Source: Botryllus schlosseri (Eukaryota). From it: a DNA stretch of 64,000 bases. The translations under genes were made by a program, and so were the position numbers. The notes beneath the pieces are model-generated. The model worked only from the letters and a program-made list of their open reading frames with translations. It made no database searches and was not told the DNA's origin. This document shows, in pieces, positions 1-62,086 of this stretch; within the stretch, counting starts at the first letter, position 1, and each line of letters begins with the position of its first letter. The DNA lies in contig CM119372.1 of NCBI GenBank assembly GCA_051294905.1, forward strand, positions 31,188,001-31,252,000, written 5' to 3'.

Positions 1-3000
1 TATCGAACGAAGACCCACCGTTTGGTTTCATTACCAGGTAAGTGAAAATTGTTTTCTGTTGGCTAGGTATGATTTGCATTTAGAAAAAAACGAACTACAC
101 CGATTAAGCGACGCTGTTTAATCTCATAATCCGATGAGTGAGTGAAATTTCCTTAGGGTTTGATTTACCGAGTTAATTACCGGCGATTCAATCGCATACA
201 AGTAAGATCTTTTACGGGATGAGTATTGTGACGACCTTTACTTTGACGAATGACAATGGGGAAAATTTCCGATTTCTTTGGTCGTGAGCGTTCTACAAAT
301 ATTTCCGGCATACATTTTGCAAGCAACCTACAATATTCTTTTGTTATGGTAATGACTTCCGCAAGTTTGGTTTTATGATTACAATTACTTTAGAAGATTC
401 AAATGATAATTTATGATCACTACCTCGAGCAACAATACAAACACATTTTGTAGATTTCAGTGTAGTGCCTATTGCGATTTTGTCAATGCTATGGGTTTTG
501 CGTATACTCAAGTCTAGTAGAATAGGATGGTTCAGTAAAGATATTCCAAATTGCTTCTGTGTTGATCATAGTCTTGAAGTGTTAATCTGTAGACTTCACA
601 ATGTCTTAGAGAGTGCGACCGGAATTATGTATTGATCGCGCGCTTCAAAGGGTACTAGATACCCAAAGTGATATTTTCACACTCTGTAAGTTGTGTATGT
701 TTCAATTCCTGTCACAACTCCGACAACAAATTGTATCAATTGCTGGATTCAATAGTAAGGACGTGTCATTGTGTCACTGACTCTACACTTAGTCGTTTCA
801 ATTATCCGTTGCGAATCGGGATAATAAAGCATTTTGCATCGGGTGTTTAATGTATGAATAATGGAATAATTGCATCTTTCGCTGTTGTTTATCGCAAACG
901 ATAGATTTTAATAATTGTACTGGTTGTTGAATGTAATAATACCGATATTGCTGTTTCATCTTTAGTCTTGGTTACTGGAAACAATTACATTTGTAAAATA
1001 TTTCCTGATATCGCGATACGCAGAGTGATTTTTATCGAGGGGGAGTAATTCTACAATCAAGAACATTTCAGACACGTATAGTTTTACAACTTAATATGTC
1101 AAGAACAATGGCACTGAAAAGTTTGTTGCTGTCATAACATTTACCACAACGCCGTGTCTAATTACCGCGAATAATTTAATAATCAAGTCTTGATCAACTA
1201 TTACATATGTCAAATCACTGTGTCAATCCTTATGTTTACATCATGATAATTTTCAATATAACGCCTGCGTTTGATCGTGAGAAATGGATTCTTAACTACG
1301 TTGGTCAGACTTTCAAATGTCGTATATTCTCAACATATGCCAATCTCAAGTTGCGTGCACCGATTAGTAATTACTTTATGTTACACGGTATACCGAGTAG
1401 TAATTACTTTCACAGTTGAGCAAAAAAGACGAGTTGGCGGTATATGACTACAACCAAACTTGCTATGGATTTTAGATTGTAGCGATTACTTGCGTAATCT
1501 TGACTACTTTCCATTCGGATACTGTTGAGTTGTAAGTTACAAACGGATTTACGTGACAAGGTTTTCCTTGTTGACTCTTTGGAGTATGGTAAGATGTTAA
1601 AATGTCGAGACGTAATACTATTTCCGTTAACTCAATTGCAACAAAAAAAATAACCAGACAGCTTGTTCAAGGTATCGACAAATAGATAGTAATATTCCGA
1701 TTTAACTCATCGCGTCACAACTCGATCGCGGTATGCACAAGTGGTTGGCAAGTTAGAAATGTTTACAACAATGGGCGATATTTCATTGACTGACTCGATT
1801 GTGTGTAGTAACACATTAAAATATCGCGATAGTAATTACTGAAACTCTCTTTGACAAACGTAAAGACAGGTCGCGAATAGAGTTGTAAGGTTTCATTACT
1901 TGTTTCAAATCTAATTCTAAATATGACTGGATTGAAAGTTGGTAGTCATGTTTGTCAATTTATTTCAATTCAGACTATGTCAAAGTCCAAATATTTCATT
2001 CTGGATTATTTTGATTTACCTTTAGTACATCCCGCGAATGGATTCCGACACCACACTATAACATTCTCAATAATAAGGACTCACGGATTTTCAATCAACA
2101 ATACCTGCATTTTTTGGTAAAGTTAGAGTTGGCAAATGATTAGTTGCGTGTTTTTGTTAAGCGTTTGATTTCTCAGTATTAAATACAATTATTGTATACT
2201 TGTTATTCCTGATTCTCATTGAGCTAGTTGGTATTGATTCTATAGGTGTGAAAACAGCGATGCGGAATGTGTGAATAATGCGATGCGGACGAAAGTCGGC
2301 GTCAGGAATATTCGGGTTACGTTCGATTCAACAGATCGCGTTAATAGGATTTGTCAAAGGATTTGAGTTGGGTCGAATCAATACATTCAAATACGAATCA
2401 ACTTGAGTTGTGTAGTAAGTTTCATTTCAAGTTGACAAACTAACGCATTGATTGAATATTTTCATGATTCTTATCATACAACTGAAGTCAGCCACTGTTC
2501 CGAAGTGTCAAAACATATAGCGACCACCAGAAAGTGTCAAATTGTTGGTTTTCGAATCACCGTCTGCGACGGCTCTGTGACAAACTTATTGCGGAAATAT
2601 TACCTTGTGAGCGATCGGTATGTCTGTAACACCAAATCATGAGCGATCTCTATGTCTGAAGCATTACCCTGTGAGTGGTCGTAGGATTTTAAAAATATTT
2701 CACACCTTTTTGAATAAGCGTTCACTTCACAAAGGATTAGGGTTAGAGCGGAAATAAGTGACAATTTGTCGCTATTCAAGTTACCGACACTGACGGTCTG
2801 TTATTCGTTACTTATTAAATCTTACGAGCGAAATCAAGTTCTGTGACAAACTGCTTACGAAAATTTCACCGCGTGAGCGATCGATATGTCTGTAACACCA
2901 AGTCGCGAAAGATGGTTATGTCCGAGACATTATCTCGTCAGCGATGGCGGGGTTTTGCAAACTATTTCACACCTTTTTGAAGTGTTAGTATGTGAACGCG

Positions 3001-3482
3001 GCTATTATTGATATTCGAATCGCCGTCTACGCCGGCTCTGTGGCAAACTAATTACCCAAACATTACCATGCGAGTAATTCCTAGATTTTGCAAACTATTT
3101 TGACGCCTTTTTTGTTGAAAGTACGACATTCCGCCCGCAGCCTATACCCGAAAGTACGAATCATCACCGCATCCATAAGAATAACGATATATCGAAGTGG
3201 CGCTCACCGTAAACGTTGGGATTCTCTCGAATACCAGACGGCAGGTCATCACCGCAGCCTATACCCGAAAGTACGACTCGCCAACACGAGTTTTCACGGT
3301 ATATCATCACCACAGCCTATACCTGAAAGGGTGGGGTCATCACCGCGCCCATAAGAAACAATGGCAGGTCACCACCACATGGGTGGTCTAAAAGGGTGGG
3401 GTCATCACCCCGGGTTTTCAGGCAGGTCACCGCCGCACCCATAAGAGCCCCTGCCAGGTCACGAGCGATCTATACTACTACT
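1..3482 (-). mobile_element. Non-autonomous Polinton-derived element, divergent copy; one arm only, truncated by the window start
   Basis: Ends ...GATCTATACTACTACT at 3482 (AGTAGTAGT on the minus strand). Colinear over its whole length with the reverse complement of 12659-16148. Carries the same ~30-bp GTGAT/CATCAC subterminal repeats as the Polinton end at 51751. No credible ORF. Confidence 0.9.
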
Positions 3483-5417
3483 CACGCCTAACGGTCTATA
3501 GGCCAGACCGGACAATGTATTCAGCGTCTGACTATGCTACATTGATATTGAACAGAGTGTAAAACGGGTTTCTACCGACATTACCGATATAACAAGTTAT
3601 ACAGTAGCCAAAACCCCAATCGCACGGATTTGATTTTTTATGATATAATAAACATATCAAATCAAGATGGATCCCGTAGCCTACGCCTGCTAGATTTATT
3701 ACATTAGACAACGGTGTTTTCTTTATAATAATTTCATTGATTGGTTGAAAAGGCATCATTCGCCGACTACCTGCATGTAGTGTATTTTGTACTTGATTTG
3801 GCATGATTGCGGGTCAAGCTCACAGCAATAAGTCACCAAATATTCACAAACGGAAAGCTGAATATTTCGAGCAAACTTTATTAACAAAGCAAGTAAAAAT
3901 TTTGAGATTGGCAAGGTGCGTGCTCGTTTAGTGTTGATTTTTCATGCTACCAGTGCCATGCCTAGAGTGGTCCGATGTTGAAATACAAGTAGAATTTCAT
4001 CCAAAGATGTCTCAATGACGTGAAAAATTGTATTTTATGAAAGAGGTTCACAGTACGGAACCTACCAAGGTTCGTTTGTTAACGTGAACCTCTAAATTTC
4101 TGAGGTTCACACACAGAACGCGCACGTGAACCACGCGTTCACAACATCCCGATTATAGGAGTCATTGTTGGTACACAAGTACTATATATATGGAAGTACT
4201 GCCGCAAATCTCTATTAAATGACAGGTAGGAGATGTAATTTTTGAGACACAGAACAATGACTCTAAGTAGAAATAGATATCGATGGGTCCATGAAGTACT
4301 CCAATAATTAGTTTGTTGGAGTAGCTTGGCTTTTCTTAATCAATGGACCGTATTAGTATTCCAAATTGTAAGATGCATCTTTGCAAGCAACGCACAATGA
4401 ACGTCGTCGAGAAAAATTGAAAATTATAAAATTATTACATGATACCGTCATAGGCCTACAATTACATAGTCTGCCTCGAGCATCTGTCATGACAATTTCA
4501 CTAGTGGTAATGATGCGATCATATCCAAATGCTCCTTCATACTTAAAACATTGTCAAACATTGATCACCTTGATAGTTTTCTCAATATTTTTCAAGTTTA
4601 CAGTCGAGTGTCAAGTCACTATGGTATATGAGCTGACTTTAGAACCGTGTGTGGAGAGAGTCAATAGGACGATTGCGTTTGGTTAACATATAGGTTATAT
4701 TCGTTATCATGTGGTATTCGTTTCATGTGTAAACCAGTTGCAACAATTTCTCACTCAGTACCTTTCACATTTTTAGTCAAATGACGTGTTCCTGAACTAA
4801 GAGATCACGTAGCCTAGTTACTACATGTTGCACGAAGATGAATCACTGAGCCTGATATCTTGACCTGCCATCAGCTCACCAAGCATATAGGGCCTTAGCA
4901 CTAACGGTAATTAAACATTAAATCAAAAGAAGGTATAATAATGTCACCACTAGTAAATGACCATATTCATAATAATATTGATCAGGGGCTCTATTATTTT
5001 CATCCTCTTGAGACACACTGTATATACTATGAAATACATCAAGACGTATTGCGATGCATAATGGACAAATAGGAGGCTGTCGAAGCGACCGAGTACGCTC
5101 TCTCAATCAAATATCTACCCCTGCCTAATGCCGGGTAACAGTGTTCTTTCTTGAACTTTTTCGGTTGTCTTTTAATATGTTTTTCCGTGCTCTATTAATT
5201 CGCTTTCCTTGTATTCGTCCTTCAGCCAACTCCGACTCTATGTAGTTTTGTACAGAGGTCGTAAAACAGCACATAATAACATACATTTATCGATCCTATG
5301 CTTCAGTAGAAGAACCCATTTTGTTATGAATTTTGCAAAACGGGCCTGCTATTATGGAGAACATATAGATAGCCTGTTCAGGAAACTAGGGAGGTGTCAG
5401 ACGTAAACGTCAGCACA

Positions 5418-48143: not shown

Positions 48144-48995
48144 CTGAAAAACATATACAATACCGCATTAGTTACATATATGTGTATCAAACTATATAAA
48201 TCTTGCGAAGCAAAGCTGTAGGTTGTATGGTTGGTGACACTTATAATCGGGACCAATGCCAGCACATGACATCGGATAACTCCGGACACTATCAATACAT
48301 AAATACTTGATTAGTCAAATGATACAAAAACCAGGGTATTAAGATATCGCACGTCGAATTTATTCCGCTTCGCACTATTCGAGTTTCATTTGGAGGTAGC
48401 CAGTAACGAATTACTTCCACGTTTTCCAGATAATTCAGTAGTTTCACTACGGAGGCTGTACTTAAGGCGTCATCATCATTGGTTTATTAGCAATATTATC
48501 GGTTCAATACACCACAAAAATGCGATACAAAGAAAAGATAGGAAGTTGTCGAAGCGACATGGAGTAGTCTATTGAATCAGATACCCACCTTGGCCTAGGC
48601 AATGTAAAGAGGAGGCATGCACACTCAATGAAAAGTAAAGAAGATAGTATAAAAAGGGCAAGTAGCAAGAAATGGGGTGGCATGTCATGGAAGGCGAGAT
48701 CGATAGGTTAGTCGTGGTCCGGTAATGTTGAGGATGGACTAATTAATATTCACTGAGTTGAGTTTTATGAGTGAAATTATCAAAATACCCGCGTCAAAAT
48801 CTCCTATATCCCGGCAACGAATATGTACTCGAGAATTGAACGTATTTTGGTCATTTTGTGTGTCGCCAACATACACCCTGCCATTCCAAGTATAGATGAG
48901 TAGCCGTCATGTGTCGGGCATTTGTCATAAAAGATGTTCCTATAACCCTCCTATCATTTTCAATCTGCAGGTTATTATAGATGTCAAGATCAGAC

Positions 48996-50396
48996 CTTTA
49001 ACAAGCTCAGAGGATGTTTCCATGTATACCGCGCCAGTAGCGAATCGTCGAACCACTGACCATCGTTCCGCATGAAGACCTTCTTTATTAAAGTCCCGGA
49101 ATCTGCTAATCTCCATCTCAGCTACAAATCTCGCTGCCAGATATTCTTGAATGCTTTGGTGGCAGAAAAAGAATACGAAATCCCCTTGCATCAAACTGCG
49201 GCTGAGCAGATTTTCACCCGGAACCTTTGCCATTAAATCTTTAACGTCATCGGCGGACAGTTCAAAATGTTGTAAATCAGATATCTTGAAGACAACTCTT
49301 CCTTCTTGCATGCCTCGAAAAGACATCTCTTTCAGTTTGTTCACTACCGACGAGATGTCTTCTGATTTTCGTATGTTTTCTACGCCTTCAAGAGCTGCGA
49401 TGATCCTATCGTACAGTTCTGTGATTGTAGCCGGAGGAGGCCTACGTGGATCTTTTCCCATTACAATCGCGGTTAAAATTAGGAAGACCGGTTGGGATAT
49501 TATATGGAGCAATCGTGGCGACATCCTTTCAATTCGTTTCCAAAGGCAGACTCCGTTTTCTCCAAGAAGGGAAGTGAATAGTCCCTGTGCGTCTGGTAGA
49601 GTGAAACCATGCAGCATAATAATATCATGGGGTCTGGCTTTCTGCGGTAGCTCAGAGATCCTGAATTCCCTTGAAGTTATGAAAATTTTAACGTGCCGAA
49701 GGATATTCCGTGCTAAAATATTGTATAGGATTGTCCAGGTGCTTTCTATGTCATGATTTTTGATGGTTCGAATGTCTCTATGGTAAATATTGAACCTTGC
49801 TTGATCGAGCCCGTCAAAAAATATAACCGCATCGGATTGATTTTCAACTAACCATTTAAATGCCTGATTTTCTTCGCAATCAGTTTCGTAAAGACCACCG
49901 AAAAGAAATTTTGATGGCTTGATAAGGTTCTCGTCTTTAACATCCTTCAATTCAACATAAAGTATCATCTTCTTTTCGTTGAACAGTTTATGTATGTTTT
50001 CCCCAGAGGATAAACCCAGAGATTTTTTTACTAGTCTACGTGTAAGTGTCGTTTTACCTGATCCCGCTGACGCGACTATGGCTGTAATACCGACCGTTCC
50101 AGACGGCTGTAATTTTTCTCTCTGCCATATGGACGCCATTACCTCGTCAATTTGGATCGGTTTGTTTTCATTCTCATCCTGGTAGTTGAATCCGACTTCA
50201 TTTACCAGTTGATTTTGTACAGCTACATCTCTTTCATAGCGACCTTTGTAGTAGTGGGCAACATCAACCTTTCGCATTTGCGGGTGAACTACAAAGTCTG
50301 TCTCTTGCAGCCCGTCGAGCTTGAATTCATCAAGAATACTGACCGAAGAGCGTTCGTCAGCACTATCGTTGACACTCTTTATAAGTCTGTCGACGT
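48996..50396 (-). CDS. NACHT-domain NTPase (NLR-like innate immune receptor), large internal exon
   Basis: Walker A ASAGSGKT, Walker B VIFFDGLDQ, sensor FITSRE, winged-helix FCHQSIQEYLAA. The frame is open upstream of the annotated ATG to acceptor TTTTGTTGCAG| (50397); donor AAAG|GTCTGA at 48995. Confidence 0.92.
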
Positions 50397-50625: not shown

Positions 50626-50896
50626 CAGTAAAAAGGTGTTCCTTGACAACCGTAGTGTGGTGATTTGTATAGTCTTTTGTATTCAAGCCATCGTGCATCA
50701 TGTAATCATTGCTTTTCTAATCATTAGTTTCCAATTCCTCTGTTACTTAAATCGCTACTGTTACTGGTACTGTTGTATTTGACGCCGAGATTTAAGTTAG
50801 TAAAAGCCAACGAAACAAGAGTCTTCTGTTTACTGGTACGACAATTTTACTAACTTAAATTGTATCTCGCTGCTTGGAGAAAGATCGCCTGTAGTA

Positions 50897-51750
50897 ATGT
50901 CTGGAGAGAAGTATATTAAAGTTCCAACGTTGGACGTGTTACCAGACTCTGCAGATAGTGTGAAGATATTCTCTCATTGGGAGCGGATGTTGAAGAGTTT
51001 AATCGAAGCTATATCTGCTCTTTCAACTGATGTAAACAAGCTCGCTATATTTTCAGGTTATTTATCACCTGAAGTCTCCTCATTTATTGAAGAAATTGAT
51101 GATTACGATGCTGCTATCACCGAGCTGCAGTCCCTTTACAAAAAAAAGAAAAACGAAGTCTACGCCCGACATCTGCTAGCAACTGCAACGCAAGAGGTTG
51201 GAGTTAACGTGTCAGAATTTTCTAGAAAACTGATGGCGTTGTCTAAAGATTGTAACTTCTTGGCCGTAAATGCTCAAAAGCATAAAGAGGAAGCTGTAAG
51301 AGACGCTTTCATCACTGGGCTGAGGTCCCCGGCAATTTGACAGAGATTACTGGAATGCGATGAACTAACTATGCAAAAAGCCTTCCAGACTGCGGACACG
51401 TTAGAAAGAGCCTAATTGTTCGCCAGCTCGTACAATGTCAACCCTCCTTCGTCTGATACCATCGCTTCTGCGGAAATCGCAGCAGTTCGGCAAAGCGATC
51501 CTGAACACGGGACAGATTTTACCGCGGCTGTAGAAAAGCCTGGAGCACCGAGATTACTGCGCAAATGCTTCTTCTGCGGCGGATCTCATGTGGCAGACAA
51601 GCCCGTTTGTCCTGCAAAGGACGTCGAATGCCTGAAATGCGGAAAAAAGGGGCATTTTGCAAAGGTATGTCGATCCCCTCGTTCATATGACATCCGAGCA
51701 ACCGCCAGCATGCTTCTAGCAGGAGTTCCAAATTGTCTCTGGCGTGAGTC
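50897..51750 (+). pseudogene. gag: Gypsy/Ty3 LTR retrotransposon gag, with two in-frame stops, cut by the Polinton insertion
   Basis: NEVYARHLLAT...RDAFITGLRSPAI*QRLLE gag motifs; zinc knuckles CFFCGGSH...CPAKD and CLKCGKKGHFAKVC. Stops at 51338-51340 and 51413-51415. A possible LTR at ~50651-50843 has no clear PBS. Confidence 0.85.
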
Positions 51751-52075
51751 AGTAGTATATACGATCGGTCGCGAACTAACGTTTTTTGCATGGGGTAGTA
51801 TAGGCGGGGTGGTGACGCGCCTGAAAACCGGGGGTGGTGATGCGCCTTTTTAGACCCCCCTCTCGGCGGTGATGCGCCATGTGTTCTTATGGATGCGGTC
51901 GTGATGCGCCATTGTGGCTTATGGATGCGGCGGTGATTCGCCGTGAAAACTCGTGGTCGTGACTCGTCTTTTTTGCTATAGGCTGCGGCGGTGATGCGCC
52001 ATGTATTCTTACGGGATCTGTGGTGACTCGCTATGTGCTCTTATGGGTGCGGTCGTGATTCGCACTTTCAACCAT
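51751..52075 (+). repeat. Polinton left terminus: subterminal array of ~22-32 bp GTGA(T/C)-core repeats (part of the TIR)
   Basis: About ten copies of (G/C)GTGA(T/C)(G/T)CG... e.g. GTGATGCGCCATGTGTTCTTATGGATGCGGTC. Full TIR length cannot be set without the right end. Confidence 0.85.
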
Positions 52076-52548
52076 CTCTCGCGTGGTGTTGAATAGTCAC
52101 CAACAATAACCGCACAAACGGAAACGTGGCTTGCAAGAGGATTAAGTAGTGCGTGCGACCTATATTCCGAATGACCTGCGCGCTGAATTATTTCCCGTCC
52201 AGCTGTGTGCTACTATCGATTATTACACTAGACCAGTCAGTGTGAAATAGTTTGATCGTAAATTATGATATATGATGTCGTAGTTTAGTCGTGTCGAATG
52301 ACCGATCGTGTTCTCTTTCCTCGCTATTGATTGCTAGCTGAATAATACTTTCAGATCGGATTATTCACACCTTCGCTGTTTCGCGCCTACAGAATAGTCT
52401 GCTGTTCACAGTCGCAACTTCATCGCGATAGCGCAATTTTCACACCTCGATCAGTAGAACAACACCGCGCTAACCCAGTTGTCGAAACACATAGGTCATA
52501 CATTTTACGTGAAATGAAATATTGTATTGTGGTATACAAATATGCAAA

Positions 52549-53160
52549 CTATTCTTTCAATTCAACAAGTCTAGTTAACGGATCGATTTTCAAGCTGCCG
52601 ACACAGTTTTTAACACGAGTGAGTTGATATTTCTTCCCGGGTACGAGCGAGGCTTTGTTCCATTGATCCAAAACCACCTCGCCAGTATCATCCTTCAATG
52701 TAAAACTGTATAATTTCAACTCCTTTCCGGCACCAGAATTGACCATCTTCTCCTCTCGAGAAACACAAGTAGCGGCGATCGAGACGTATTCATCTTTATT
52801 TCCGTATACCGATTCACAGGTCAATAATGGGTATTCTTCAGTCGTATGTCTCGATTTTCCATGCAGAGTTACTGACGAAGCCCGACCAAGTAATACAGCG
52901 GGTTTTCCAGTAAATTTATCAATTTGAACCCAACCGGATTTGACCATGAGTTTTTTTCGTTTGGTGAATGCTTTCTCAATGTTCCCGAACAAATCACGAT
53001 TGAAACACGTGAAAGATATCTCTTCGTTATTGCCATCGATGAATATACCTTTGAGATATTGGCTAACGCCACCTCTTTTGGGTGATGAGACGAATTTGAC
53101 GCCGACGTGAAAATTTGAAGTTGCTCCGACTTGCATAGTGTTGACGCTGTTCGATGCCAT
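52549..53160 (-). CDS. Tandem OB-fold, RPA/SSB-like ssDNA-binding protein
   Basis: Two OB-like repeats: FIDGNNEEISFTCFN and FTLKDDTGEVVLDQWN...LVPGKKYQLTRVK (LxDxTGxIxLxxW motif). TATAAATA at 53207-53200 favours the ATG at 53160 over 53196. Confidence 0.75.
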   Translation of the reverse strand: MASNSVNTMQVGATSNFHVGVKFVSSPKRGGVSQYLKGIFIDGNNEEISFTCFNRDLFGNIEKAFTKRKKLMVKSGWVQIDKFTGKPAVLLGRASSVTLHGKSRHTTEEYPLLTCESVYGNKDEYVSIAATCVSREEKMVNSGAGKELKLYSFTLKDDTGEVVLDQWNKASLVPGKKYQLTRVKNCVGSLKIDPLTRLVELKE

Positions 53161-53322
53161 ATCGTTTGATAAAGTGGGAGTCATCAACAAACCCATCGAT
53201 ATTTATAGAATTAGGCACGTGGTATTGAGTGAGTTAACAGTCTTTGTATAATCCTGATGACGCGCGTGAATAGACTTGGATTGAAATAAACTTTACAGGA
53301 GTTCTGTAAGAAAGGATGCCGT

Positions 53323-54048: not shown

Positions 54049-54056
54049 TATAAATA
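54049..54056 (+). promoter_or_regulatory. TATA box upstream of the terminal-protein gene
   Basis: TATAAATAGCCA, 82 nt before ATG 54138; an identical 12-mer occurs at 60294. Confidence 0.65.
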
Positions 54057-54137: not shown

Positions 54138-54843
54138 ATGGCCGAGGCTCAGATAGATAATCTTGATAAATTTGGTTATGAACCAAATGCATTTGAATCG
54201 CAATTTGAAGAGAATGCGGATATCTTTGATGCGATTAATTCTGGTGATCTGATGACGTCTGATTTAAGAGTTGAAGCCACAGAACGCAACTCTACGACAA
54301 CGATCGAAATGCAACCAAACCACGCAGATATAGCGCGTCAGGTGGGGCTGAAGTCTGTGAGTCGACGCAGACGGAGTCATGTTCGCGAGGAAGAAGACAC
54401 ACCACCAGAGACAGGCGACCAATACCAAGAAGTTGTATCCCAGAACTGGTAAGTGATAAAATCATATGTAGTGAATCAGAGTCGGCGCGTGTATAATATC
54501 CGAGTCATCGATCGTGAGATACCGGATGTTTTCCGCGATATCCAAGCGATATTTTTCTCAGAGTCGACTCGTTTCAAAGTGAATTTTGCGTATGGAATCA
54601 TTTTACATAACATCGCGGCTGGGAGATTTCGGTATTTTCATGCGTCGGCGAACATCGATAGCGTATTAGAAGTCCCAGCAGCGATTACATCACTAGCTGA
54701 ATGATGAATTTGTTGAATCTTTAACGTTGGAAACGGCACTAGATGTGTTACAAGACTCTCGACCAGATACAAAATACAGGGCAGTCTGTCTGGCTAATGT
54801 ACAGTTTTACGTATACCCCACTGACGGTTTGTTGATTGGTTGA
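54138..54843 (+). pseudogene. Terminal-protein-like region (N-terminal module of Polinton pPolB) as a separate gene, with a stop at 54450 and a frameshift at ~54702
   Basis: SQNW*VIKSY...YNIR...FKVNFAYGIILHN...FRYFHASAN..., then in +1 frame DEFVESL...SRPDTKYRAVCLANVQFYVYPTDGLLIG*. These motifs are typical of the segment preceding the vOTU domain in Polinton PolBs. Confidence 0.7.
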
Positions 54844-55499
54844 GCTGATATCGAAATACGATGCCGATGTGTCTTTTCATGATCTCAATCATTTTCATAG
54901 CGACCCAAGAAAATAATCCTGTCATTGAATTTTATTGAGATGTACTTGTATATATTGTGTGTGTGGTGTTATTGGGGTTTAATTGTACATTATGTTTGTT
55001 TAATATGATTTTTTTTGTATTGTGTGTTAATGTATCATTTGTTTTCCAGGTGGATAACATTATTTCATATCTCAAGTCGGTTATGTCATTAGATTTATAT
55101 AGTTTACATATAGAGATCACATTGACACAGGGATTAAGGGTTTAATAGGTAAGTTATTCGGTGCGAATACTTTGATTTATGAATATAATTTGTTATTTAT
55201 TTATCCACCAGACAAAACAAGCGTGGGATTAAAGAATTGAAACGGTGAGTTATTACTGTGTAGAACTATTGAGCATGATGTAATGATTTTGTTGTTGAAC
55301 AGACAGAGCAAGCTCAAGTGGGATTCACAAGTCTACTGGTGAGTTATCTGTTATATTACTATGTTAGCGACATAGTTTGACGTGTTACTTGTTTAGTATA
55401 AAGATCCAAGGAAGATACCGAAAAAGAAACCCCATTGTAAGTAACAGTAGTTTAATATTCCCAAGTGTTGAATGTAGCCACGCGGTATCAATTTTACAG

Positions 55500-58400
55500 A
55501 TGACTCGACACCTTTGGAATCATGAAGAACACGCACCGCCAGAGATCGATAACCAAAAGCAACAAATTACATCTCAGATCTGGCAAGCGGTGAAATCGTA
55601 TGTAGTAAACAGTAGCCACGTGCGCAATACTAGCGTCAGCAATCGTAAGCGGTCGGATGTTTTCTAAGATACCCAATCGGTCTATCTGATCAACCCCCAG
55701 TTATTTGTATATCCTACCGATGGTTTGTTGATCGGTTGTGTCGGTATTAAACTCCCGATATGGCTTGCGAGAGCGAGATGTATCATGACATTTACACGCC
55801 GAAAGAATAATACTAAATACAAGGACAATCTGTGTGCTTTTCGCTGTATTGGTCACACGCTAGGTAAAGACACCAAAGCAATGGCCCAACAATTCACTTC
55901 GACATATGGTGTAAATGCAGAATCTGGCGTGACACTTGACATGCTGGATAATATTGAGGATTTGTTTAATGTCGCCATCTTCGTGTATACTAAGACTGAG
56001 GGTAAAGCTGTCGCACTCCGTCGTAGTACGTTTGAAGCGAAACCTGTGTACTTACATTTAGAAAATGCACACTTCTGTCTCATTACTGACATGAGGCGAT
56101 ATATGGAGAGCTATCGATGTGATGTTTGTCAAAGATTTTTTTATGAGCAGCACGAATTGACCAGACACAAATGTACAACAGAGCCTGTTGAAGTGTTTCC
56201 CGGTGGCGTATATACACCTCCTCTGGCCATATTTGAAAAGCTTGATCTAGAAGGGATGTTTGTTCCTCACCAGCTTCGTTATTTCAAATACCGTATCGCG
56301 TTTGATATTGAGAGCATGTTCGAGAAGTGTGATATTCCAGATTCCTCCAAAACTTCGTGGGAGTGCAAACATATTCCCATTTCTGTTAGCATATCTTCTA
56401 ATGTGGAAGGGTTCTTGGAACCGTATGTAATTGTCTCGAACGGTGACCCAAACGACTTGTGTGCGGAAATGGTTGATCATTTTCATGATATTCAAAGTGA
56501 GTCATTTAGGTTGTTACAGATGGAATATCAACACTACTTGGACATGCTCGAAACTAAAATTGCCGAAATGAAAGCACTCGATCCTTCCGAGAAAAAAATA
56601 CCACTTGAACGTTTACAGGAGGAGTTTATGCGATATTTAAAACAAATCCCTGTTTTGTCGTTCAATGGTGGTCGGTATGACTTGAACTGTCTCAAAGAGT
56701 ACTTGATGGGTTTACTCGTTGACGAAAATGTGAGTGTATTGAAACGGGGTAACAACTTCCTCTCTTTGACAACCAACAGACTTAAACTTTTGGACATTGT
56801 AAATTACTTGGCACCCGGGTTCTCGTACGATGCTTATTTGAAAGCCTTCAAATGTAGCGCCGCTAAAGGTCATTTTCCGTATGAGTTTCTGACTAGTTTG
56901 GAAAAGCTGGATTATACGAGTCTACCTAGCCACGATGAGTTTTACAGCTCGCTAAAAGGTCGTAATATATCCACAGCTGAATATGAAAACTGTTTGAAGG
57001 TTTGGAATGATAACAAAATGACCACTTTACGTGATTATCTCAAATGGTACAACGCAATCGATACTCATTACTTCATTGAGGGGTTAGAAAAACAATTTCA
57101 ATCTTTCAAAAGTCAATTCAGTGTGGATATATTCAAAGAAGCTGTCTCCCTACCCGGGGTTGTATCGAGGCATCTTTTCAATAGCATTCCGCGTGATTTC
57201 ACCTTGTTCAATGATAAACACCAAGATCTGGTTTCGCTATTCAGAGACAATTTAGTAGGCGGACCGTCGGTCATTTTCCATCGATATCAAAAACAGGGTG
57301 AAACTCGAATCAAAGAAGTTTTTTATAAGGAAAACGCACAGATTACCCAACATGTAACAGGGCTGGACAGCAATTCGTTATACTTTTTTGCTTTGAGTGA
57401 ACCTAGTCCAACCGGTTTCCCGGTACATTGGCAACCACTCGATGCTGAGTGTACTAAATTCAAACCGGTGAAGACCGCACCGAAATGGGGGGAGACAGCA
57501 GCTCAATGGCTAAACTGGTATTCGTATACCCACAATGTACATGTCCACCATGCTTTTAATGGACCTGAAATCCGCGTAGGAGCTCGTAATTACCCTGCTG
57601 ATGGGTTCTATCGTAATTCAGCTGGTCAAGGGGTAATCTTGTCTTTTCTTGGATGTCATTTCCATGCACATCAGTGCAGATTTGGCTGTGATGATTTGGA
57701 ACGTCGAGAACGGACTAAACGTGTTCATGATTATTACAAAAGCCTCAATTACCAAGTCATATGTAAATGGGAATGCGACTGGCGCACGGAGAAACAGGAA
57801 AATCCTGATATTGTGCGATATCTTAATGGTATTCAACCACAATTGACTCGAGCCAAGTCTGTCACCGCACAAAAATTGATGGAGATGGTAATGACTGGTA
57901 CATTCTTCGGATGTTTATCAGTTGATATTTTTACGCCAAAACATTTACAAAGGAAGTTTGTTGAACTATGTCCTATATTCAAAAATACGATGGTGTCTCG
58001 CGAGCATTTGACAGGTCACATGAAACAGTTCGCTATTGATCGTAAATTACTCCCCAAACCCACGCGCATGTTGGTTGCTTCATACTGGGGCAAGAAAATC
58101 TTGTTGACCTCCGACTTGATCAAGTGGTATGTAGAGCATGGGTTGATTATATCCAAAATTCATGAGGCGGTCGAATTCACAAAAAAGACCTGTTTTGACA
58201 GCTTTGCGAAAAATGTCTCAGACTGTCGACGTGCTGGGGACCGCGACCCCAGCCTAGAGATCATTGCCCTAACGCAAAAATTAGCTGGAAATAGCAGTTA
58301 TGGCCGCGTCTTGATGAACCCACGTAAATTCAAACGAACGTCCTACTGTGATAAAAGCGAATTGGGCACCAATGCGAAGGATCGTTTTTTCGTGAAATGT

Positions 58401-59092
58401 GACGAATTGAACGCTGATCTATTTGAAATAACGAAGCGACCTAAAACGATCAAGTGGGGTAACTGTATTCAAGTGGGATTTTGGGTGTATAACAATGCTA
58501 AGCTCAAGATGTTGTCGTTTTTTTATGACTGCTTGTGTAAATATTTCCGTGACGAGTGCTTCATGCTATTAATGATGGCCACAGACTCCCTCTATCTTTT
58601 GCATTCAGCCTCATTCGACGATATTCTTATCCCTGAGAAAAGAGATGAATTTTATCTTGAATACGAGAACTGGTTTCCACGCTATTTTTGTGATGAGCAC
58701 CGAACTGAGTTTTTGGCTGACCCGGTTTCTTTTGATCGCTCGAGGCAGTGTTGCAAAGATGCGTATGCGTATTACCTTCGTCAACCGGGTTTGATGAAAG
58801 TGGAGTATGAAGGTGGTACATCTTTCTGCGGTCTCCAATCCAAAAATTACTTTTGCGATGGACCAAAGAAAAAATTAGCTTCCAAAGGGCTCCAGAAATC
58901 CAATCAAATTGACTTCGAAAATTTTCTGGGTGTCTTGACATCTAAGGAAGCTACGGGGGGAGTGAACAAGGGGTTTCGGTGCAGAGATGGGGTGTCTATA
59001 CGTACAAACAACAGCGTAAAACATTGTCCTATTTCTACGCCAAACGTCGAGTGCTCGAGGATGGTGTGTCAACCCTACCATTAAATGTGTAA
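55500..59092 (+). pseudogene. polB: Protein-primed family B DNA polymerase (vOTU-like protease, Zn finger, exonuclease, polymerase with VSR-like nuclease insertion); near-intact but with lesions
   Basis: DNLCAF...ENAHF (vOTU Cys/His); ExoI FDIES, ExoII FNGGRYD, ExoIII YNAID; motif A DSNSLY, motif B KLAGNSSYG, motif C MATDS. In-frame TAA at 55665. A frameshift in the G-run at 58989-58992 hides the canonical end YTYKQQRKTLSYFYAKRRVLEDGVSTLPLNV* (stop 59090-59092). Confidence 0.93.
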
Positions 59093-59689
59093 TTGTGTGT
59101 TATTGTATTTTATTTGTATATTCTGTGTGTTTGATTTACTTGTTTATTACTTGTTTATATGTTTGATTTACTTGTGTGTGGTAACGTGTCATTTGTTTTC
59201 CAGATTGATAACGCTATCTAAAGCCTGTCATGTCATTAGATTTATACACTTTACATGTAGAGATGATTACCTTGGAGTGGGAATTACCACAGTTCATGAT
59301 TCTTGACTCTACCAACAACTCGCAACACCGATGATACCCGATTGATGAAAAGCAGACCACCAAAACTTGTGCTCCGTGGTGAGGTCTATAGTTTGTTATA
59401 GAAACACTATATTTTAAAGCGTTATGACCGTATTATGAATCCTCTTATGTGATTTATTATTTTACAGCTTGGGGTCAGCTGCTTGACGACCTGAAGCGTT
59501 CGTAACACTACAACTTCCATTGACGATGAGGAACAGATGAAGATTTCATAACCCGTGGAAAATTGTTAAATCGAACTCTACTGGGATTATATATTCCACT
59601 AGAACAAGATGACTACAACAGTGGATATTCCCAACCTTGTTGATATATAAACACATACACTTTATCGAGTTTTCAATAAACAACAAACA

Positions 59690-60298
59690 ATGGAATTGAT
59701 CCACCCATTCGCGTGTATTGTGAGTGGTCCTTCAAGAAGTGGGAAGACTACTTTTGTTGCAAAGCTGATTAGGCATGCCGCATCCATGATTAAACCAAGT
59801 GTATCCAGGGTCGTATATTGTTACAATAATTATCAGGAGGTTTTCAAGACGATGCATAATGTAGAATTCCACGCTGGTCTAGATATTTTAGAAGAGTTGA
59901 AGGTTTGCTCTGAAGACACCTTGATTATAGTGGATGATTTCATGACTGAGACAGCGAAAATTGCAGACTACTTTACAAGATTTTCTCATCATTCAGCCAA
60001 GACAATTTGTTACGTCACACAGAACCTGTACCACAAGGGTAAAGGGGCACGTGACTTGAGTCTTTCAAGCTCGTATATGGTGATTTTCAAGAATCCGCGC
60101 GACCAACAGCAGATCAGTTTTCTTGGTCGACAAATGTATCCAAACTCTAGATTTTTAACAGAGGCTTATCGTGACGCTGCTAGGCAACCTCATAGTTATT
60201 TATTCCTCGATCTCACGCAAGAAGCGCCTGAAAATCGACGAGTTATGACCAATATATTTCCTGGTGAAACCATGGTGGTTTATAGCCCGATGGTATAA
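59690..60298 (+). CDS. A32/FtsK-like DNA packaging ATPase
   Basis: Walker A GPSRSGKT, Walker B LIIVDD, and TQNLY / FKNPRD / YLFLDL motifs typical of Polinton ATPases. TATATAAA at 59644-59651. Confidence 0.95.
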   Translation: MELIHPFACIVSGPSRSGKTTFVAKLIRHAASMIKPSVSRVVYCYNNYQEVFKTMHNVEFHAGLDILEELKVCSEDTLIIVDDFMTETAKIADYFTRFSHHSAKTICYVTQNLYHKGKGARDLSLSSSYMVIFKNPRDQQQISFLGRQMYPNSRFLTEAYRDAARQPHSYLFLDLTQEAPENRRVMTNIFPGETMVVYSPMV

Positions 60299-60679: not shown

Positions 60680-61080
60680 CTTCTTTCAAAAAAATCTTCA
60701 TAACTCCGAACCCGATCAACGAGGTTGAAGCTCAGAAATTGAATTTGGATATCGATAAATGTATGAGCGACATATTACAGATGAACATACCCCAAGAACG
60801 AAAATTAGCCTTATATAACGACGCACTAAATCGTTATCAAACAAAACACGACACATTGAATCAACCGATGAAAATCGATATATCAGAACAAAGGAATCTA
60901 TTTTCGGCTAGTGAGTTGGACGCACTGCGACGCCTGATCAAGGGTGAACCATCAAGGATTCCTAAACCTCACTCACCATCACCGAGTAGCCAACGAAGCA
61001 AAGTAAAGACCCAACATGCCAAGACGAAAAGTGGTCGTACACCCAAGACCCCGAGACGATACGGATGGGAGCCATACTAA
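60676..61080 (+). CDS. Polinton hypothetical protein (helical N-terminus, basic P/S/K-rich tail)
   Basis: ATGA overlap with the upstream gene; LDxxMxDIL...KLALYNDALNRY segment; overlaps the integrase start. Confidence 0.75.
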   Translation: MTSFKKIFITPNPINEVEAQKLNLDIDKCMSDILQMNIPQERKLALYNDALNRYQTKHDTLNQPMKIDISEQRNLFSASELDALRRLIKGEPSRIPKPHSPSPSSQRSKVKTQHAKTKSGRTPKTPRRYGWEPY

Positions 61081-62086
61081 ATATTTCACGCCAGGGCTAC
61101 CTGGTAGTTTCCGCGGCGCATACGTATTCTCTAGAGGGCGGAATAGAACCAAAGTCAAGGAGTTTCTTTCGAGCAAGGACGCGTACACAAAACATTTTCC
61201 CTATCGAAAGAAATTTAAGAGACCTAGGGTGATTACGTCCGGTCTCGGTGTTCAGTATCAAACCGATCTCATGCATATGCAAAATCTTTCAAAAGAAAAC
61301 GATAATTTTAAATATGTGTTGGTGACGATCGATTGTTTCAGTCGATTTTTATATCTGTATCCACTCAAGAACAAAACCTCGCAAGGTATTATTCGCGGAT
61401 TCAAGGAAATATTTAAGGATCGTATACCTCATGTTATTCAAAGTGATCAAGGTTCTGAGTTTACTAATCGTGCGTTTCAGACTTTCTTAAAAGAGAACAA
61501 TGTGCGACATTTTCATACAAATAGTGAACTGAAAGCATCGATATGCGAGCGTGTTATTCGTACTGTGAAGCAAGTGTTATACCGTTATTTCACGCATAAT
61601 AAGACTTTGAATTATGTCAGTGTCCTGTCTGAGATATGCCGGGGGTATAACACTACTTTTCACGTGGCTATAGGGTGTCCTCCAGCGGATGTTAATTATT
61701 CGAATCAAGAACAAATTTTCCATAGGTTATACGGTGACATGACCCCTAAAAAACCCAAACTAACTATCGGCACACCCGTCAGGATTTCGAAATCACGTGG
61801 TAATTTTGTAAAAAGCGCCTTGGCGAGTTGGACCGAAGAAATCTTTTTCGTATCTCAATGTCGTAAAGGTGACCCTCCTACTTATCAATTGAAAGACTAC
61901 CATGGTGAAGTTATAGACGGTCGCTTTCAGCGTGAAGAGTTACAACCAATAACTAAAAATAATAATATTTACAATATCGAAAAAATCCTGTCTACTCGCA
62001 GGAAAGGAAAGAAAACGCAATATCTTGTAAAATGGTTTGGTTATCCGTCTAAATTTAATTCTTGGGTCTCGGATTTGTATAAATAG
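61016..62086 (+). CDS. int: Retroviral-type (rve) DDE integrase with C-terminal chromodomain
   Basis: YQTDL / IQSDQGSEF / ASICER catalytic triad; YNIEKIL...YLVKWFGYPSKFNSWV chromodomain; uninterrupted. Confidence 0.96.
   Translation: MPRRKVVVHPRPRDDTDGSHTKYFTPGLPGSFRGAYVFSRGRNRTKVKEFLSSKDAYTKHFPYRKKFKRPRVITSGLGVQYQTDLMHMQNLSKENDNFKYVLVTIDCFSRFLYLYPLKNKTSQGIIRGFKEIFKDRIPHVIQSDQGSEFTNRAFQTFLKENNVRHFHTNSELKASICERVIRTVKQVLYRYFTHNKTLNYVSVLSEICRGYNTTFHVAIGCPPADVNYSNQEQIFHRLYGDMTPKKPKLTIGTPVRISKSRGNFVKSALASWTEEIFFVSQCRKGDPPTYQLKDYHGEVIDGRFQREELQPITKNNNIYNIEKILSTRRKGKKTQYLVKWFGYPSKFNSWVSDLYK

Follow-up and report, generated by a model that had tools for sequence, protein, structure and literature searches.

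A multipartite spliced 5' leader ahead of the TP/polB genes in a family of Polinton elements

Results

Genes and features of the locus

The window, a stretch of 64,000 nt from Botryllus schlosseri, contains much of a Polinton of ~15.3 kb, which runs to about window-equivalent position 67021, beyond the window (Table 1). The element is bounded by terminal inverted repeats with AGT ends and by a 6-bp target duplication with one mismatch, and it encodes a protein-primed polB with TP and vOTU domains, an integrase and an ATPase; on these features we class it as a Polinton. A double-jelly-roll capsid protein lies beyond the window (L051:1106-2377); its Atlas score of 0.98 is to clusters in which 14-30% of the members carry PF21738, and it has no direct Pfam match of its own. 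A 167-aa ORF with the motif order H, D, Q, C, judged by eye, is an adenain-like protease candidate without a Pfam or PDB match, and Pfam and PDB sequence searches gave no identity for the minor capsid candidates or ORF1.

The Polinton is inserted within a gypsy-type LTR retrotransposon (window 50656-51750, L051:3522-6511), with the gag-like part before the Polinton and protease-RT-RNase H after it; the 188-bp repeats of this element are 98% alike. On the minus strand, a 215-aa ORF with no Pfam match lies within the Polinton (52549-53196), and an intronless 445-aa NACHT-domain ORF lies outside it (48940-50277).

Table 1 Features of the Polinton in the window, with positions counted from the first letter of the window
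Feature	Position	Strand	Observations
Left terminal inverted repeat	51751..52418	+	668-bp inverted match, 99%, to L051:2854-3521; AGTAGT end
TATA-like box upstream of ORF1, putative	54049..54056	+	From sequence
ORF1 5' part, fused by deletion to TP-like cistron	54138..54355	+	ORF1 is ~292 aa in other copies
Stand-alone TP-like cistron	54358..54850	+	Broken here: stop at 54450, frame change near 54700; domain assigned by another copy's fold
T/G-rich spacer and acceptor TTTTCCAG	54920..55049	+	Duplicate of post-polB spacer/acceptor (59088-59203); predicted SL trans-splice acceptor
Chimeric first exon	55050..55148	+	55050-~55134 duplicated post-polB exon; ~55135-55148 end of native exon 1
Leader intron 1	55149..55211	+	63 nt; GT in 54/54, AG in 53/54 copies; donor-acceptor joint in one X3 contig
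Micro-exon 2, non-coding	55212..55244	+	33 nt; 33, 34, 39 or 40 nt in relatives
Leader intron 2	55245..55302	+	58 nt; GT and AG in 57/57 copies; excised in X1 contigs
Micro-exon 3, non-coding	55303..55338	+	36 nt; 35-43 nt in relatives
Leader intron 3	55339..55396	+	58 nt; GT and AG in 57/57 copies; excised in X1 contigs
Micro-exon 4, non-coding	55397..55436	+	40 nt; 33-41 nt in relatives
Leader intron 4, acceptor adjoining ATG	55437..55499	+	63 nt; GT, AG and ATG in 57/57 copies; X1 contig at first leader of L041
polB cistron, short form without most of the TP domain (vOTU + polymerase)	55500..59084	+	PF03175, E 6e-8
Internal donor GTATGT	55598..55603	+	98 nt after ATG; GTATG in 53/57 copies
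Post-polB acceptor	59196..59203	+	Takes host 24-nt SL; 15 X23 reads with SL loose end
Downstream intron	59379..59467	+	89 nt; equivalent joint on L041 in 34 X23 reads, 2 X21 reads and an X3 contig
Packaging-type ATPase	59690..60298	+	P-loop; weak, generic Pfam AAA_14 and RNA_helicase matches
rve integrase with chromodomain	61016..62086	+	PF00665, E 3e-16; PF00385, E 8e-9

A rearranged TP/polB region in the window

The simplest copies of the family carry ORF1, an exon 1 of ~180 nt, four introns and a full TP-vOTU-polB. Four layouts of the region were distinguished (window 54138-59084, L004-L030): the leader followed by full TP-polB; the leader followed by polB without ~86 aa of TP; separate ORFs for TP (162 aa) and for a polB that lacks it, with one leader copy before each; and the layout of the window, in which ORF1 is fused to TP. 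A deletion at 54355/54358 made this fusion and removed the rest of ORF1 together with the first leader. In L028 and L029, which belong to a subfamily without ORF1, a TATA box similar to that of the window stands ~150 nt before the first leader donor.

The 162-aa TP-only ORF ends at the TP/vOTU boundary. Folding the N-terminus of a long-form copy other than the window gave an OTU at 167-283 (Z 8.3, rmsd 3.5, 102 aligned) and a Y-family little-finger-like domain at 40-158 (Z ~5, weak), and the best viral matches were adintovirus/MELD polB. As judged from this fold, the assignment of the TP domain is weaker than that of the vOTU; the pair of domains matches what the available part of one description gives for Polinton TP and vOTU (bioRxiv 10.1101/2024.03.18.585575).

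The original prediction placed the start of the leader at the acceptor at 55050, with a 99-nt first exon, and this start had to be abandoned. Window 54920-55134 duplicates the spacer, acceptor and exon that follow polB (70% identity over 198 nt), which makes the 99-nt exon chimeric; the native exon 1 has been lost from the window by deletion. The chimeric exon holds a 20-codon uORF from 55083. Such a duplicated acceptor precedes 24 of the 57 leader copies described below, all 24 of which stand before a short polB, and its AG is kept in 24/24.

Four introns end on the polB start codon

Four introns of 63, 58, 58 and 63 nt, with their donors and acceptors, were confirmed in the letters of the window, as were the exon sizes of 99, 33, 36 and 40 nt and the GTGGGATT that exons share. 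The ATG at 55500 directly follows the last AG and is in the polB frame as predicted, but full polB cannot be read from it, since a stop at 55665-55667 ends the frame after 55 codons. This stop is absent from the other 28 short-form copies. Going by its letters, the window copy is unable to make full polB from 55500.

The cluster of GTRAGT donors had been put forward as unlikely to arise by chance. Four such hexamers in 288 nt on one strand have a P of ~0.03 if the 39+24 hexamers of the window are placed uniformly, a value that does not yet demand an acceptor 58-63 nt downstream of each. With this P for the donors, the case for the introns rests on comparison and RNA, and conservation and spliced contigs are the stronger evidence. 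A further donor proposed at 54449 was discarded. The hexamer is present there, but GT occurs at only 1 of 71 aligned equivalent positions, that one being the window, so it is a private change and not a site.

Conservation of the splice sites across copies

Searches of the same genome (495 Mb host genome) gave at least 40 matches each, and the copy sample comprised 30 loci from one search and 20 regions picked from two others. Sixty leader copies were found, three of which were removed as the same genomic place. In the remaining 57, 449 of 450 GT/AG ends are intact, which answers the call for conservation among copies that came with the original prediction, and an ATG directly follows the last AG in every one of them. 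The family layout is an exon 1, four introns of 57-68 nt and three micro-exons, then the ATG. Intron 1 is missing from three copies (L024, L026 and L030); these also lack the ORF1 body, and the upstream promoter region continues directly into the remaining leader.

The 46 distinct leader sequences are 75-99% identical in pairs (median 84%). At least 95% uniformity was seen in 35 of 36 splice signal columns vs 172 of 327 other columns (Fisher P 1e-8, a value that overstates the difference because the alignment rows are related). Background conservation is high: many GT and AG outside the sites are likewise kept in most copies, and the mean majority was 0.89 in intron interiors and 0.86 in exons, the exons being the more variable. 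We conclude that the leader is kept by selection on its splice signals.

For diverged families, three upstream regions were compared. L057 and L058, a diverged subfamily, have three introns of 69-75 nt that again end on the ATG, and their leader is not alignable with that of the window above shuffles (alignment score 95; shuffles up to 101.5). In a distant Polinton family of the same genome (L056) the intron chain is absent upstream of polB, so the leader is not universal. At L056:770-815 a stop codon, a T/G-rich spacer and a single acceptor two bases 5' of the polB ATG have the look of a direct trans-splice site. No related loci were found in viral contigs; protein homologues, 26-36% identical, came without DNA context.

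The leader exons are non-coding and avoid ATG

A stop in the polB frame occurs in the exons of 51 of 54 copies, the other three being open, and the open frame of the window's exons is therefore incidental. The lengths of exons 2-4 also differ among copies by non-multiples of three. ATG is rare in these exons, with 9 in 6201 nt vs 91 expected from composition, and absent from native exon 1 (0 in 4291 nt, 24 copies), while the leader introns hold 349 in 13393 nt, six of them in the window. Seven of the nine exonic ATGs are one and the same in-frame, stop-free ATG of one subfamily, 69 nt upstream. In a single copy the avoidance has a P of 0.19, and because the copies share ancestry it represents few independent events.

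Splicing of the leader in presumed transcripts

Four sequence runs were mapped on L041, a two-leader copy whose second leader is 95% like the window's. X1 and X3 are contigs of presumed RNA runs, their RNA status being our guess; of two certain RNA runs, 6% and 3% of the reads were examined. In X1, the window-type leader had lost introns 2 and 3 (one contig each) and the first leader introns 2, 3 and 4 (1-2 contigs), one contig carrying the intron 4 joint onto the ATG. The joint from the first donor to the exon-2 acceptor was seen in one X3 contig. These leader joints map to exact GT-AG ends.

All four positions are spliced in presumed-RNA contigs, but no leader joint is listed in the certain RNA runs, where the depth is 0-2.5. 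No read or contig crosses all four introns, and none is assignable to the window's copy. An intronless genomic copy was considered as a source of the spliced contigs and rejected, as none was found: intron 4, the intron that this genome check covers, gave 0 intronless matches vs 62 leader matches with the intron (5 of the 67 rows were unrelated). Excision in X1 and X3, presumed to be RNA, the non-coding exons and the absence of an intronless source for intron 4 together characterize these introns as spliceosomal GT-AG introns of a 5' UTR. One joint, 1240-5400, we attribute to paralogy of the duplicated exon and treat as an artefact.

Splicing past polB and trans-splicing of the host SL

A paralogue of the internal donor, 107 nt inside the TP ORF of L041, is spliced over polB to the post-polB acceptor (equivalent of 59203), as seen in 2 X23 reads and one X3 contig. 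After this joint the polB ATG and the next ORF are in different frames in 19/19 cases, and the frame opened by the ATG closes after 7-10 codons in 18/19. In many relatives the post-polB acceptor adjoins the ATG of an ORF of 164-182 aa; in the window this start is lost and the ORF is broken. Certain RNA runs have a depth of 20-56 over the region after polB of L041, and the donor GT of the downstream intron is present in 17/17 aligned copies. Another exon variant at this intron (L041 388-492) was found in 47 reads. L041 has, at source 675 downstream of polB, a second acceptor with an ATG that the window lacks; it carries the SL in 78 reads.

At acceptors of the 59203 type the SL stands at the 5' ends of reads, joined at the AG, and is not encoded there: its motif occurs 0 times in the window and in 0/50 Polinton loci. 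Insertion of an SL-headed retroelement was considered as a source of the SL ends and rejected, given the same count and the joining of the SL to two different acceptors at AG. The letters that precede the SL in reads resemble the end of a template-switch adapter. A 22-mer of the SL has 254 dispersed matches in the genome; two of four examined (L052-L055) continue with AG and GT as in an SL RNA gene, and two otherwise. The SL in the host RNA is the 'Chordata 1' SL given in Table 1 of PMC3795323, in the available part of that paper, a match that suggests a host of tunicate type. At the 55049-type acceptor, where the depth is under 2, no SL end was among the loose ends listed; by its likeness to its post-polB paralogue, this acceptor is probably an SL site as well.

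Discussion

Evidence from conservation, exons and contigs bears out the central claim of the original prediction, a multipartite, non-coding spliced 5' leader that ends on the TP/polB start codon. We think it likely that selection maintains the chain as a cis-spliced, non-coding 5' leader for the TP/polB transcription unit, in a Polinton that encodes a capsid and whose host is of tunicate type. In such a leader, splicing would remove the approximately six upstream ATGs located in the introns, and only fully spliced RNA would be translated well, as any retained intron would leave upstream ATGs. Splicing from the internal donor would divert RNA from polB, and the two processes together may keep the replication protein low or limited to certain tissues. 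Since retained introns would leave upstream ATGs and the internal donor would discard polB, splicing could set the amount of replication protein; between this and introns that merely enhance or shield, our judgement is evenly divided. The window is a derived form. Tandem duplication separated TP from polymerase and gave each a copy of the leader; afterwards the first of these leaders was deleted, and the second is fed via the duplicated post-polB acceptor, probably by SL trans-splicing.

A chain of motifs that arose by chance in a spacer rich in AT and spread through recent amplification would fit the modest donor cluster P and the many GT and AG kept outside the sites, but exact excision in contigs, splice signal columns kept far better than their neighbours and the same layout in an unalignable subfamily make this the most improbable of the readings considered. 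It is also very improbable that the micro-exons are coding, either as an N-terminal extension of polB or as a captured fragment of a host gene. Exons 2-4 of the window are open in the polB frame and seven copies have the in-frame ATG 69 nt upstream, but with only 3/54 copies open, length changes off frame and exons that vary more than intron interiors, the stops and the off-frame lengths led us to reject coding for the family.

Introns can protect RNA from the silencing directed at intronless RNA. The leader might act by raising expression, or by marking an otherwise intronless polB RNA of 3.6-3.8 kb as host-like for export or escape from silencing, with no switch involved and with ATG avoidance as ordinary leader hygiene. 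Every intron is packed in the leader and none in the ORF, and the number and sequence of introns turn over (four vs three) while the architecture stays, as this reading would have it; one intron should nevertheless be enough, and the polB-skipping donor conserved in 53/57 copies is left unexplained. We regard it as quite possible, though not what we expect, and it is compatible with the selected leader preferred here. An adenovirus-like shared leader, with the same exons joined to several downstream genes (TP, polymerase and late genes), seems unlikely to us. The polB-skipping joint would suit it, as would the X3 contig in which exon 1 of the first leader is joined to exon 2 of the second, the TP cistron being skipped, and adenovirus pTP and pol mRNAs have three common 5' exons, with a tripartite leader on late mRNAs, according to the available parts of the sources (PMC11304566, PMC9499273). 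But the X3 joint fits equally an unsplit copy with a 33-nt exon 2, a common form; the polB skip is out of frame in 19/19; and downstream X23 RNAs carry the host SL, in 93 reads vs 2.

The analogy with adenovirus leaders drawn in the original prediction is partial: it holds for a multipartite spliced leader ahead of TP/polB, but in the reads the downstream genes receive the host SL and not this leader. As far as the available parts of the adenovirus papers go, the arrangement is like that of E2/E2B in having several spliced 5' exons before the protein-primed TP/pol genes of a double-jelly-roll DNA virus and in splicing alternatively past one ORF to a downstream acceptor. It differs in that adenovirus introns are of kilobase size, whereas those of the Polinton measure 57-75 nt and directly adjoin the ORF, and in that downstream Polinton genes use a host trans-spliced leader, no evidence having been found for a single leader that serves many of them. 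Homology at the level of sequence is not to be expected. Acceptors that take the same SL exon after an upstream stop and a T/G-rich spacer are also features of tunicate SL operons, as described in the available parts of PMC3795323 and PMC3691228; here, unlike in those operons, it is a virus-like element that is trans-spliced, and a donor inside polB is joined in cis to the same acceptor.

In its gene content the element is like other Polintons/Mavericks (polintoviruses, adintoviruses), for which the available parts of two sources give TIRs, a 6-bp target duplication, TP-vOTU-pPolB, ATPase, rve integrase and DJR capsid, and report TP split from polB once, in a coral element (PMC8097293; bioRxiv 10.1101/2024.03.18.585575). 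For vertebrate Mavericks the available part of PMC8097293 describes ORFs without introns and gives no transcript structure, whereas the present family has leader introns. In the literature on Polintons/PLVs and adintoviruses, as covered by openly available text outside supplements, Repbase and subscription papers, we found no spliced leader, and group I introns at most. Polintons are regarded as free of introns, hardly any work has been done on their transcripts, and annotation of ORFs only misses this leader. A four-intron leader, an ORF-skipping splice and a host SL in one 15-kb element make the first concrete and testable Polinton transcript map that we found.

Control of a key enzyme through RNA splicing has a precedent in the third intron of the P element transposon, a probable on/off control. 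The P element uses one coding-region intron, whereas the Polinton has four leader introns and an ORF-skipping splice, for which control is only our suggestion. The layout nonetheless suggests how an integrated virus may limit its polymerase in a living chordate model. A more far-reaching reading, which we consider doubtful, is that this Polinton lineage independently reached the logic of adenovirus E2B: a leader would gate the replication genes; where TP and polymerase are split, alternative cis-splicing or SL trans-splicing of a single transcript would select between them; and intron retention and polB skipping would form an off switch for tissue or stage. Adenoviruses are thought to descend from Polintons, according to the available part of bioRxiv 10.1101/2024.03.18.585575, and if the E2B-like reading were true the family would be a living model of how the adenoviral spliced leader and TP/pol split arose from Polintons.

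Within the leader of the window, intron 1 and exon 2 weakly resemble intron 2 and exon 3 (55149-55338), and on this likeness a unit of ~95 nt may have been duplicated in tandem to extend the chain.
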